Shown one piece after another: positions 16,986 through 17,061 of a DNA stretch of 20,979 bases. Within the stretch, counting starts at the first letter, position 1. Every line of letters begins with the position of its first letter. Made by a program: the position numbers and the translations under genes. Source of the stretch: a virus; IMG/VR virus record IMGVR_UViG_3300045988_018631, positions 1 to 20,979 of that record; one strand, written 5' to 3'. The notes under the pieces were generated by a model, which was given only the letters and a program-made list of their open reading frames with translations, had not been told where the DNA came from and searched no databases.

Positions 16986-17061
16986 TGGTTGCAGGAGAAG
17001 GATTTGCACCATTCGACCTTCGGCTAATAAGACCGACGAGCTACTACTGCTCTATCCTGCT
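16986..17061 (-). tRNA. tRNA-like gene with a TAT (AUA-reading) anticodon and initiator-tRNA-like features
   Basis: The minus strand from 17061 to 16986 reads AGCAGGA TA GAGC AGTAGTA GCTC G TCGGT CTTATTA GCCGA AGGTC GAA(T)GG TGCAAAT CCTTC TCCTGCA A CCA, 76 nt in total. The acceptor stem has 6 of 7 pairs, with an A1 x A72 mismatch. The D stem has 4 bp with A11:U24. The anticodon stem has 5 bp, the last being U.G, and the 7-nt loop gives anticodon TAT. The variable loop is AGGTC. The T stem needs one bulged T. CCA is encoded. Deviations: no GG in the D loop, G at position 55, and U at position 37. Confidence 0.7.

Follow-up and report, generated by a model that had tools for sequence, protein, structure and literature searches.

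An initiator-type tRNA with anticodon UAU and putative ATA start codons in a family of human-gut phages

Introduction

To our knowledge, initiator tRNAs are regarded as universally carrying the anticodon CAU, and AUA is a very poor start codon in bacteria. Initiator tRNAs with mutated anticodons have reportedly been engineered, both in older work by Schulman and RajBhandary and in a study of "orthogonal initiation" that is said to have used tRNA-fMet mutants with anticodons such as CUA, GAU, GAC and AAC; we know of no UAU version among them. Mitochondrial tRNA-Met, which carries f5C34, initiates at AUA. Ivanova et al. in 2014 and Borges et al. in 2022 are said to have described phage suppressor tRNAs that accompany stop-codon recoding of late genes, and phage tRNAs whose altered anticodon loops evade anticodon nucleases are also documented.

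Pairing between position 37 of tRNA-fMet and the mRNA base at -1 has been demonstrated by experiment in E. coli, where complementarity boosts initiation and an A37U initiator prefers the complementary -1 base (PMC10018350). The formylase determinants of initiator tRNAs are the 1:72 mismatch, 2:71 and 3:70, and one anticodon-stem pair, G30:C40, is essential (PMC5389676). Unmodified U34 reads AUA selectively in the tRNA-Ile(UAU) of Mycoplasma mobile and in the tilS-suppressor tRNA-Ile1 G34U of B. subtilis (PMC3919564). No natural bacterial or phage AUA initiator was found in the literature, our coverage of which was incomplete, so that a prior description is possible.

Here we analyze a window of 20,979 nucleotides from a virus (IMG/VR record IMGVR_UViG_3300045988_018631). 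Judged by their sequences, this virus and its relatives form a family of human-gut phages that carries an initiator-type tRNA with anticodon UAU and whose virion genes appear to open with ATA.

Results

A tRNA gene with initiator features and anticodon UAU

ARAGORN calls a 76-nt tRNA on the minus strand at 17061..16986, exactly where an earlier note on this DNA had placed it; that note left the strand unnamed, and the gene reads as the reverse complement. The call is tRNA-Ile(tat), a label set by the anticodon, and our assignment as an initiator-type tRNA draws in addition on Rfam, an identity table, covariation and diagnostic positions. The match to Rfam RF00005 reaches 49.1 bits (gathering score 29, E = 5.8e-8); the type B tRNA scores 48.8 bits, cousin lineages score 56-65, and every variant lies above the threshold, while some variants of the family are missed by ARAGORN.

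The anticodon loop, seen again as CTTATTA, has U34 and U37 and thus the anticodon TAT proposed before. Position 1:72 is an AxA mismatch without a Watson-Crick pair, and G2:C71, C3:G70, A11:U24, A73 and an encoded CCA are all present, so that the two initiator hallmarks A1xA72 and A11:U24 reported in the earlier note were both recovered. The third one, two of three G:C pairs in the anticodon stem, holds in the window (G29:C41 and G30:C40 are kept and 31:39 is U:G) but not across the family, where only 30:40 is kept. The structural caveats raised at the time are likewise all in the sequence: the elbow is degenerate, with a D loop AGTAGTA that lacks GG, G55 and one bulged T-stem base. Elbows are normal in cousin lineages of the window clade's tRNA, where the T loop is TTCAAAT.

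Grouping with initiator tRNAs

Identity of the window tRNA to bacterial initiators is 76-80%, as opposed to 57-62% to E. coli metT, ileX and ileT (57.5% to ileX and 60.8% to ileT), and a blastn search with the tRNA against annotated phage records matched only tRNA-Met of the initiator type. The initiator tRNA used for the original comparison equals the gene of the Salmonella metZ locus letter for letter. Elongators have a paired 1:72 and, in E. coli, C11:G24, unlike the mismatch and A11:U24 of the window tRNA. What the latter shares with elongator tRNA-Ile2 or tRNA-Ile(UAU) is the anticodon UAU, able to read AUA; their paired 1:72, pyrimidine 11:purine 24, A37 and Ile-type body are all missing. 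The view that the body resembles initiators and is not Ile-like was thus borne out by both identity and alignment, and by sequence comparison the window tRNA groups with initiators rather than with Ile or elongator Met tRNAs.

The anticodon of all family members is UAU, not the CAU of initiators, and because this is the defining departure we class the tRNA as an initiator-tRNA variant rather than as tRNA-fMet. Natural initiator variants show purine:pyrimidine at 31:39, and the U:G found here is the other way round, so that a single G:C pair of the three holds throughout the family. U34 should be rejected by MetRS, and U37 cannot carry t6A.

Conservation across the tRNA family

About 33 related contigs retain the tRNA; its loop and acceptor end do not vary, three pairs of the anticodon stem have been swapped in a compensatory way, and its flanks are more variable than the gene. 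Among 15 distinct family sequences, 95.6% of the cells of the cloverleaf alignment pair and 12 pairs change on both sides; none of 500 shuffles did as well, slid controls were about 43% paired, and covariation backs all four helices. This covariation fixes the register of the stem, which rules out a shifted anticodon (a UUA suppressor or a 9-nt loop). We also ruled out an attP remnant: the tRNA is full length and, in a related prophage (L128), lies internally, between the regulator gene and terminase.

Six tRNA lineages have the loop CUUAUUA in common. All six show the 1:72 mismatch (AxA, CxA or GxA, always with A72), and G2:C71, C3:G70, A11:U24, G30:C40, A73 and the loop do not vary among them. 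The pairs at 2:71 and 3:70, which were not imposed by the search patterns, are invariant in 15/15 family sequences; similarly, the tRNAs of L128 and of lineages E and F were found without a D-stem constraint and have A11:U24 too. Elsewhere in the anticodon stem, 31:39 is U:G throughout save for C:G in one variant, and 29:41 is G:C or A:U, the latter in most lineages. By alignment, the positions fixed across the six lineages are the published formylase determinants together with the essential anticodon-stem pair (PMC5389676).

Promoter-like element, terminators and the upstream gene

An extended -10-like element, TGTAATAAT (17076..17068, minus strand; a consensus match only), is present upstream of the tRNA as had been claimed, and its end lies 6 nt, not 7, ahead of base 1. 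Relatives retain TGnnATAAT upstream of the tRNA, and the L128 prophage has GATAAT 5 nt before base 1. At this 6-nt distance, the first transcribed base may be that of the mature 5' end or one adjoining it. The tRNA does lie between two terminator-like hairpins, both of them found by terminator scan and folding. One, a hairpin with a U-run at 17079..17107 on the minus strand (-14.8 kcal/mol, z = -4.28 by fold energy), overlaps the TGA stop of the upstream gene; the other (16902..16884, minus strand; 16876..16902 together with its T-run) separates the tRNA from the first downstream gene. The gene directly upstream (17088..17414, minus strand), called the late regulator before, encodes a small sigma-like protein that weakly matches phrog_1740 (RNA polymerase sigma factor, E = 4.6e-4) and whose homologues have weak Pfam matches to Sigma70_r4. 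A megablast search of the region against annotated phages gave no match.

ATA start codons in virion genes

The suggestion that late genes use ATA starts was substantiated for small terminase (TerS), portal, minor head, capsid, head-closure, tail and tape measure genes, in which ATA sits 5-11 nt after a strong Shine-Dalgarno sequence. All genes described here are on the minus strand. The portal gene (11912..13315) opens with ATA at 13315, 5 nt past AAGGAGGT and one codon past an in-frame stop; this ATA is found in 43/43 relatives, and the portal is shortened to 436 aa in public gene calls. The ATA of the minor head gene (11106..11915, start 11915) overlaps the portal TAG stop (ATAG) and is invariant among relatives, and the protein aligns with phrog_1220 from residue 4 of the open frame, at profile position 7. 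The major capsid gene (5395..6264) has AAGGAGG, 9 nt and then ATA at 6264; residues 3-288 align with positions 3-294 of the 297 of phrog_422, in the alignment the annotated ATG of the capsid genes of PMBT5 and RG-TP1 falls at precisely this ATA, and the capsids of the sister group begin with MPNN or MANS.

In the gene for a head-closure-like protein (phrog_556; 4152..4514) the ATA at 4514 is invariant, while an ATG two codons on has given way in relatives to ATC, ATA or ATT. The tail protein gene (phrog_3099; 3230..3736) has AAAGGAG 8 nt before the ATA at 3736, and its start codon in relatives is ATA in 30 and ATG in one. The tape measure frame (1..2268), which extends beyond the window, has AGGAGGTG, 9 nt and ATA at 2268, directly past an in-frame TGA; this ATA is invariant in relatives and is also the start in L126, L128, L129 and L135. 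Small terminase (14637..15008) has ATA at 15008 and its relatives have ATG or ATA at the exact codon, with ATA also in L068, L128, L129, L135 and L146. A 64-aa gene (17411..17605) has a probable ATA start at 17605, 6 nt past AGGAGGTG, where 35 relatives all have "A ATA gaa" and differ in the spacer just upstream. An ATG lies two codons 3' of the ATA both at 17605 and at 15008. One gene (9864..10472) starts with ATG in the window and with ATA in most relatives (18 ATA versus 7 ATG) in an identical Shine-Dalgarno context, and position 1 of phrog_24103 corresponds to its residue 1.

Statistics of ATA starts

A crude count of triplets at the optimal Shine-Dalgarno spacing was noisy and also counted codons beside true starts; it was dropped and replaced by a frame-opening test and per-gene tests. 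Nine long frames have no canonical start near their beginning, and five of them have ATA within their first three codons (P = 3e-4 to 7e-6), and none of the other triplets behaves like ATA in this test. At the same codon, ATG and ATA alternate among close relatives. On the evidence of the sequences, the ATA start codons appear to be real. They are enriched downstream of the tRNA (21/45 versus 3/29, P = 0.001), in agreement with their attribution to late genes, but are not exclusive to these, as shown by a replication gene in L062 and by the 64-aa gene (orf64) upstream of the tRNA. Internally, AUA is the least used Ile codon of the phage (78/475, 16% of Ile).

The base at -1 is A in 27/32 ATA starts compared with 31/66 ATG starts (P = 4e-4). 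No ATA allele in the window clade lacks A(-1), and the few ATA starts with another base include the portal of L146 (G) and the regulator of L135 (T). Since the unusual U37 matches this strong preference, a four-base AAUA:UAUU pairing is suggested by the sequences, of the kind demonstrated by experiment for position 37 and base -1 in E. coli (PMC10018350).

Co-occurrence of the tRNA and ATA starts

Related phages were to be searched for co-occurrence of the tRNA with ATA starts, and all six CUUAUUA lineages have them: the window clade, L062, L068/L129, the L128 prophage, lineage E and lineage F. Among the relatives without the UAU tRNA, a small sample, L116, PMBT5 and RG-TP1 have ATG starts and L130 has ATG starts with a CAU initiator tRNA. 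The L126 and L127 loci end short of the tRNA position and count for start codons only (ATG in L127). The odd codon use thus goes together with a phage tRNA that matches it and is not seen in the few sampled relatives that lack the tRNA; this is the pattern of recoding.

Six further lineages or lineage pairs (L046, L047, L048/L065, L058, L066 and L004) have the loops CUUAUAA or CUUAUGA and showed no convincing ATA starts in 5-14 kb; the few ATA candidates there adjoin canonical codons. An extension to all initiator-like UAU tRNAs was therefore dropped, and we limit the claim to the family with the CUUAUUA loop. The only lineage for which a host was found is L128, a prophage in Amedibacillus sp. 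YH-ame6 (GCA_053848845.1) that was reached through portal homologues. A scan of bacterial genomes for a host gave 30 matches, none in the window clade; about six of the 30 are real tRNAs that resemble host initiators with C34T.

Discussion

Initiator grouping, conservation, fixed identity positions and ATA co-occurrence all support the proposal, already made in the earlier note, of a dedicated initiator for AUA codons, and from the sequences we consider it very probable that the phage encodes this tRNA as an initiator reserved for (A)AUA starts, which would belong mainly to late genes. We infer how it would be charged, formylated, used in the P site and paired over four bases, and what regulatory purpose it would serve, as follows. 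The tRNA would derive from tRNA-fMet by a change of the anticodon from CAU to UAU and would be transcribed as a small unit of its own, with an extended -10 promoter and terminators on both sides. Because of the UAU anticodon, it would most likely be charged with Ile by IleRS, Met being possible. The host formyltransferase would then formylate the charged tRNA, since the 1:72 mismatch, G2:C71, C3:G70 and A73 are kept; IF2 would bring it to the ribosomal P site, and G30:C40 would let it pass the IF3 checkpoint. There it would pair with AUA codons 5-11 nt past strong Shine-Dalgarno sequences, and U37 probably gives a fourth pair with the A preceding ATA (AAUA:UAUU), a pair that may stabilize and make specific the weak, all-A:U codon-anticodon helix. 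Terminase, portal, capsid, tail and tape-measure proteins would be made from start codons on which the host initiator works poorly, and translation of virion genes would thereby depend on the phage's own tRNA. The fullest version of this scheme, a natural orthogonal initiation in which A-AUA is read by UAU plus U37, proteins probably start with formyl-isoleucine and virion genes are gated independently of the host initiator, we regard as having an even chance of being correct.

The tRNA might instead be an ordinary elongator tRNA-Ile(UAU) that aids decoding of internal AUA codons, with the host initiator weakly reading the ATA starts. ARAGORN labels it tRNA-Ile from its anticodon, a Firmicute IleRS can charge tRNAs with unmodified UAU, which read AUA (PMC3919564), the phage has 78 internal ATA codons, and dual use is conceivable; yet every diagnostic position is initiator-like, above all the 1:72 mismatch and A11:U24, U37 is incompatible with t6A, and AUA is a codon that the phage uses least for Ile. 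An elongator would also leave unexplained both the co-occurrence with ATA at orthologous genes in six lineages and the match of A(-1) with U37, and we consider this fallback of the earlier note improbable. A similarly small probability goes to a mainly anti-defence role, in which a replacement initiator evades the anticodon-arm nucleases that cut tRNA-fMet and reads AUG via U:G wobble as well as AUA, the ATA starts being neutral AT-biased drift. Nuclease-evading phage tRNAs are known, the anticodon stem and loop are unlike the host type, the ATG/ATA polymorphism looks near-neutral at some sites, and an RtcB RNA ligase gene is present in the L128 prophage as well. Against this, ATA is fixed at orthologous portal, capsid, tail and tape measure genes of lineages whose portals are only 54-61% identical, even though one transition would turn ATA into ATG; the fit of A(-1) with U37 indicates that the tRNA is tuned to the ATA sites; and unmodified UAU binds AUG weakly in ribosomal binding assays with B. 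subtilis (PMC3919564). An anti-defence role is compatible with the initiator mechanism, and the dispute concerns purpose alone.

We find it most improbable that the tRNA is a decaying, non-functional initiator copy with a chance C34T and a coincidental link to ATA. The degenerate elbow of the window clade (no GG, G55, bulge), the variants missed by ARAGORN and the sporadic C34T initiator copies in a few cellular genomes would suit decay, but conservation and compensatory stem changes speak against the degenerate pseudo-tRNA once considered: an invariant loop and acceptor end persist over about 33 contigs and throughout six lineages that have diverged, no variant falls below the Rfam threshold, more variation is seen in the flanks than in the gene, the gene has promoter-like and terminator elements of its own, and ATA starts consistently accompany it. 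Just as remote is the idea that the ATA starts are annotation illusions, a downstream ATG, GTG or TTG being used and the tRNA having an unrelated role. Gene callers do put starts downstream, and at 17605 and 15008 an ATG is close at hand; those downstream starts, on the other hand, lack a Shine-Dalgarno sequence and would cost 17-35 conserved N-terminal residues. The capsid matches its homologues residue for residue from the ATA, the exact codon alternates between ATG and ATA, at 4514 it is the ATA and not the downstream ATG that is conserved, and ATA is enriched where frames open (P = 3e-4 or lower).

If the fullest version of the scheme is true, these phages would provide the first natural case of an initiator tRNA with a non-CAU anticodon and of start-codon reassignment by a virus. 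A natural phage UAU initiator with matching ATA starts would mean that viruses can rewrite translation at its starts and not at its stops alone, and would offer synthetic biology an evolution-tested orthogonal pair of initiator and start codon, possibly a quadruplet one. Through this tRNA one could test what share of initiator identity lies outside the anticodon, how important 37:-1 pairing is in nature, and whether proteins in nature can begin with a residue that is not Met. For annotation, gene finders miss ATA starts, and ARAGORN labels the tRNA Ile or overlooks it; in an abundant group of phages from the human gut, the public database entries for capsid, portal, terminase and tail genes are systematically truncated, and the affected clusters have >1,200 and >1,400 member sequences.

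Comparison with known systems

Bacterial tRNA-fMet is the nearest relative: the identity of 76-80%, A72 mismatch, G2:C71, C3:G70, A11:U24, G30:C40 and A73 are common to both, as is the TTCAAAT T loop of the cousin lineages' tRNAs. It differs in having CAU and A37 where the phage-encoded tRNA has UAU and U37, and the phage tRNA further departs from it by U:G at 31:39, a mostly A:U pair at 29:41 and the degenerate elbow of the window clade. Engineered anticodon-mutant initiators resemble the phage system in that a changed anticodon is enough to move initiation to the non-AUG codon that pairs with it and in that the synthetase reading the new anticodon sets the amino acid. They are laboratory constructs, however, whereas the phage tRNA occurs in nature, is conserved and has dozens of start codons in the genomes coupled to it. 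The phage U37 alongside A(-1) at ATA starts recalls the quadruplet pairing between 37 and -1, which in E. coli is a modest modulation of AUG starts (PMC10018350).

The UAU tRNAs of Mycoplasma mobile and B. subtilis have the same anticodon, and a Firmicute IleRS accepts UAU (PMC3919564), but they are elongators with an Ile body, a paired 1:72 and A37, none of which the phage tRNA has. Mitochondrial tRNA-Met likewise serves a natural AUA start codon, but does so with a modified C34, as the one Met tRNA for initiation and elongation and under a changed genetic code, whereas the phage tRNA is a separate, extra tRNA with a genomic U34 that works with the standard code. Stop-recoding phages, finally, also place a non-standard phage tRNA at the boundary of early and late genes and have late or structural genes that depend on it and are mis-annotated. 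There the meaning of a stop codon is altered in elongation, and here it would be the choice of start codon that is altered.

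Identity and conservation of the tRNA

The 76-nt tRNA gene (17061..16986, minus strand) is called tRNA-Ile with anticodon tat by ARAGORN and scores 49.1 bits with the Rfam tRNA model (threshold 29). From 5' to 3' it reads AGCAGGA TA GAGC AGTAGTA GCTC G TCGGT CTTATTA GCCGA AGGTC GAA(T)GG TGCAAAT CCTTC TCCTGCA A CCA, with the 3' CCA encoded in the gene. The initiator features described in an earlier note are all present: an unpaired 1:72 position (AxA), A11:U24 in the D stem, two of the three anticodon-stem G:C pairs (G29:C41 and G30:C40, the third being U31:G39), and loop changes at positions 34 and 37 (U34 and U37). 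So are the oddities it listed as caveats: GG is missing from the D loop, position 55 is G, and the T stem contains a bulge. The tRNA-fMet sequence that it gives for comparison is identical to the tRNA gene found at metZ in Salmonella. The proposed resemblance to initiators was borne out among 50,697 annotated phage records, where only initiator-type tRNA-Met genes matched; the matches include host initiators of Listeria, Staphylococcus, Enterococcus and Salmonella. Initiators are 76-80% identical to the window tRNA, compared with 62% for E. coli elongator Met, 57.5% for Ile-CAU and 61% for Ile-GAU. These elongators have a paired 1:72 position and C11:G24, whereas tRNAs of the CUUAUUA family (six lineages sharing this anticodon loop) have a 1:72 mismatch and A11:U24. 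By sequence, the window tRNA sits with initiators.

Across the six lineages 1:72 is always mismatched with A72 constant (AxA, CxA or GxA), and G2:C71, C3:G70, A11:U24, G30:C40, U31:G39 and A73 are invariant. According to Shetty et al., the 1:72 mismatch together with 2:71 and 3:70 is the major formyltransferase determinant, and G30:C40, in the middle, is the sole essential pair of the G:C triplet (PMC5389676). The conserved positions are therefore those that an initiator needs.

Among 38 close relatives from viral contigs, with loci anchored on portal, the tRNA was found in every one with enough upstream sequence. Its nine sequence variants fall into two types (A and B), which differ by three fully compensatory anticodon-stem swaps (27:43 U:A to C:G, 28:42 C:G to U:A, 29:41 G:C to A:U) and are identical in loop, acceptor stem and D arm. 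Over 15 distinct family sequences, 95.6% of pairing cells are paired versus approximately 43% with partners slid, 12 pairs are altered on both sides, and none of 500 shuffles reached the observed values. Selection maintains the tRNA. Two of the variants go uncalled by ARAGORN, the type B one that forms the majority and one of type A (L124 1385-1457; L005 1451-1526); with Rfam they score about 49 bits.

The window-clade tRNA has a derived elbow: its D loop is AGTAGTA, its T loop is UGCAAAU (with G55), and its T stem contains a bulge. The nearest cousin tRNA, in contig L062 (7928-8002), and those of all other lineages have a normal elbow with a GG D loop and a TTCAAAT or TTCGATT T loop. Since G18 and U55 pair in ordinary tRNAs, the loss of GG and G55 may be linked.

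Wherever a lineage covers the region, the tRNA gene is flanked by the small terminase gene on one side and a small sigma-like regulator gene on the other. In the window the regulator gene ends within a strong terminator hairpin (z = -4.3) and another terminator lies 3' of the tRNA, in agreement with the two flanking hairpins noticed earlier. Since TGTAATAAT ends 6 nt ahead of base 1, transcription may start right at the 5' end of the mature tRNA.

ATA start codons

Every gene in the window is encoded on the minus strand. The openings of several long frames lack a nearby Shine-Dalgarno (SD)-backed ATG, GTG or TTG; these frames carry ATA 5-11 nt past a strong SD, with an in-frame stop zero to two codons upstream. 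SD-backed ATA codons open the portal (13315), major capsid (6264), tail (3736) and tape measure (2268) frames, and the minor head ATA (11915) overlaps the portal stop as ATAG; eight genes in total are ATA-started. Nine frames of 100 codons or more have at least 12 codons ahead of any canonical start; ATA occurs within the first three codons in five of them (P = 3e-4 to 7e-6), any other triplet in two at most. Profile alignment places capsid residues 3-288 on positions 3-294 of 297 of phrog_422, and the ATA start likewise recovers the N-termini missing from minor head, tail and portal proteins. The annotated capsid starts of Eggerthella phage PMBT5 and Ruminococcus phage RG-TP1 are the exact nucleotide aligned to window residue 1 (MANSITKF and MANNIALR in homologues, IPNEIALAK in the window).

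Start codons are also polymorphic among relatives. At 10472, where the window has ATG, 18 relatives carry ATA and 7 carry ATG. The counts are 34 ATG to 2 ATA at 9613 and 30 ATA to 1 ATG at the tail start, and both codons occur at the TerS start (15008). At 4514 ATA is constant, while an ATG two codons downstream drifts to ATC, ATA or ATT. Frame-opening statistics, profiles, annotated homologues and polymorphism thus all agree with the earlier claim that late genes use ATA starts, which we regard as real on this genomic evidence. ATA starts are commoner downstream of the tRNA (21/45 genes vs 3/29, P = 0.001), although late genes are not the only ones to have them.

Both polymorphic codons at 10472 and 9613 fall in an accessory-gene block inside the head module (8322-11130, minus strand), between minor head and Phage_min_cap2/scaffold genes; one of the proteins encoded there resembles tail fibres at its C-terminus (phrog_4492). 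Elsewhere, an ABC-type ATPase-like gene (15394-16095) and a GNAT acetyltransferase gene (15029-15361), on the minus strand in different frames, jointly span phrog_11143 (positions 7-202 and 237-348 of the 357-position profile). The split is also called in relatives, with the GNAT start uncertain; the alternatives are a fusion that has been split or frameshifted and a pair of genes that are fused elsewhere.

Position 37 and the start context

U at position 37, which lies opposite mRNA position -1, is very unusual among tRNAs and common to the CUUAUUA family. Among automatically called starts in the same genomes, A(-1) precedes 27/32 ATA and 31/66 ATG starts (P = 4e-4; P = 0.004 without stop-preceded sites). 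Within the window clade, A(-1) accompanies every ATA allele; for site 9613, ATG alleles carry C, A, T or G at -1, but both ATA alleles carry A. In E. coli, Höllerer and Jeschek demonstrated base pairing between position 37 of the initiator and mRNA position -1, an A37U initiator preferring the complementary base (PMC10018350). From this and the A(-1) bias we propose that U37 pairs with A(-1), giving a four-base AAUA:UAUU pairing that would stabilise the all-A:U codon-anticodon helix and keep the phage channel apart from that of the host.

An in-frame TGA directly precedes ATA in 10/32 ATA starts (window 2266-2271; L126, L128, L129), and TTAATTA ATA is common to the window capsid and tail genes (6262-6270, 3734-3742). 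At +4, G is enriched at ATA starts (22/32, mostly Ala GCN second codons) and A at ATG starts. These patterns may be further context rules for the UAU initiator.

Distribution across lineages

A co-occurrence search found ATA starts in all CUUAUUA lineages and ATG starts in L116 and L130, few tRNA-less close relatives being sampled. L128, a prophage in Amedibacillus sp. YH-ame6 with an AxA tRNA, and lineages E and F, whose GxA tRNAs were found with a D-stem-free pattern, use ATA for TerS, portal, capsid, tail and tape measure. L129/L068, with a CxA version, have about ten ATA starts including TerS (IAKGKYKEW), and L062 has an ATA-started replication-initiation gene whose residue 2 aligns to profile position 2. 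The tRNA region is outside the locus in L126 (85% capsid identity; about ten ATA starts) and in L127 (ATG starts). No tRNA was found in the L116 locus (51% capsid identity). In L126 a QueT (queuosine precursor transporter) gene (780-1238) also opens with SD-backed ATA. The L128 prophage also encodes an RtcB RNA ligase (1235-2419), which hints at tRNA-cleavage conflict in this host-phage pair.

As predicted, the nearest clusters in a capsid search of 5.8 billion proteins were N-terminally truncated calls (275 and 256 aa, one representing 1,224 member sequences), and proteins of the sister group (approximately 68% identity) are complete, with MPNN or MANS at the N-terminus. The portal search gave a like pattern (a 436-aa cluster with 1,406 members). 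Truncation in public calls extends to portal, capsid, minor head, tail and tape measure (clusters P0001 and P0121; >1,200 and >1,400 member sequences).

Alternative explanations and comparison with known systems

The evidence for a phage-encoded AUA initiator is all computational, and four other explanations bear on it. Of the earlier note's two fallbacks, a plain AUA elongator is contradicted by the initiator-type identity elements, by U37 and by low AUA use (78/475 Ile codons), and a degenerate pseudo-tRNA by the conservation of the gene. Mis-calling of the ATA starts is contradicted by five independent lines of evidence. An anti-nuclease replacement initiator, with ATA starts arising by neutral drift, is compatible with the mechanism but leaves unexplained why lineages whose portals share only 54-61% identity keep ATA at the same orthologous genes.

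L130, a related phage with ATG starts (GC 0.53; 48% portal identity), carries between its minor-capsid and scaffold genes (7652-7725) an initiator tRNA with the normal CAU anticodon in an odd loop, AUCAUGU (A32, G37, U38). It suggests an evolutionary route to the UAU form, and may be a precursor state or an anticodon-loop variant evading nucleases.

Initiator-like UAU tRNAs with A37 or G37 (loops CUUAUAA, CUUAUGA) and U:A, CxU, GxA or G.U at 1:72 occur in unrelated viral contigs (GC 29-66%; L046, L047, L048/L065, L058, L066, L004), in whose available fragments no convincing ATA starts were found. L004, a GC-rich 62-kb contig, has a second, anomalous tRNA-like gene (9462-9534; ARAGORN 'tRNA-???', two-base anticodon 'ga') approximately 100 nt downstream of its initiator-like UAU tRNA. 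C34T also occurs in otherwise canonical initiator genes of a few cellular genomes (L085, L091, L098, L101, L108, L111), from Arthrobacter, Terracidiphilus, an Arsenophonus endosymbiont, Collinsella, Dehalococcoidia and Roseobacter.

MetRS depends on C34. When placed in an Ile body, the UAU anticodon is well accepted by B. subtilis IleRS, and its binding to AUA is far stronger than to AUG (PMC3919564); formyl-Ile would therefore be the likeliest first residue. An ATG>ATA start mutation reduces RpoS in E. coli, as expected for a poor start codon (PMC12864459). In the literature searched, AUA initiation was found in mitochondria only and altered-anticodon initiators only as engineered constructs; beside these, we would rate the window system as an anticodon-changed initiator tRNA and a phage tRNA-dependent recoding system.
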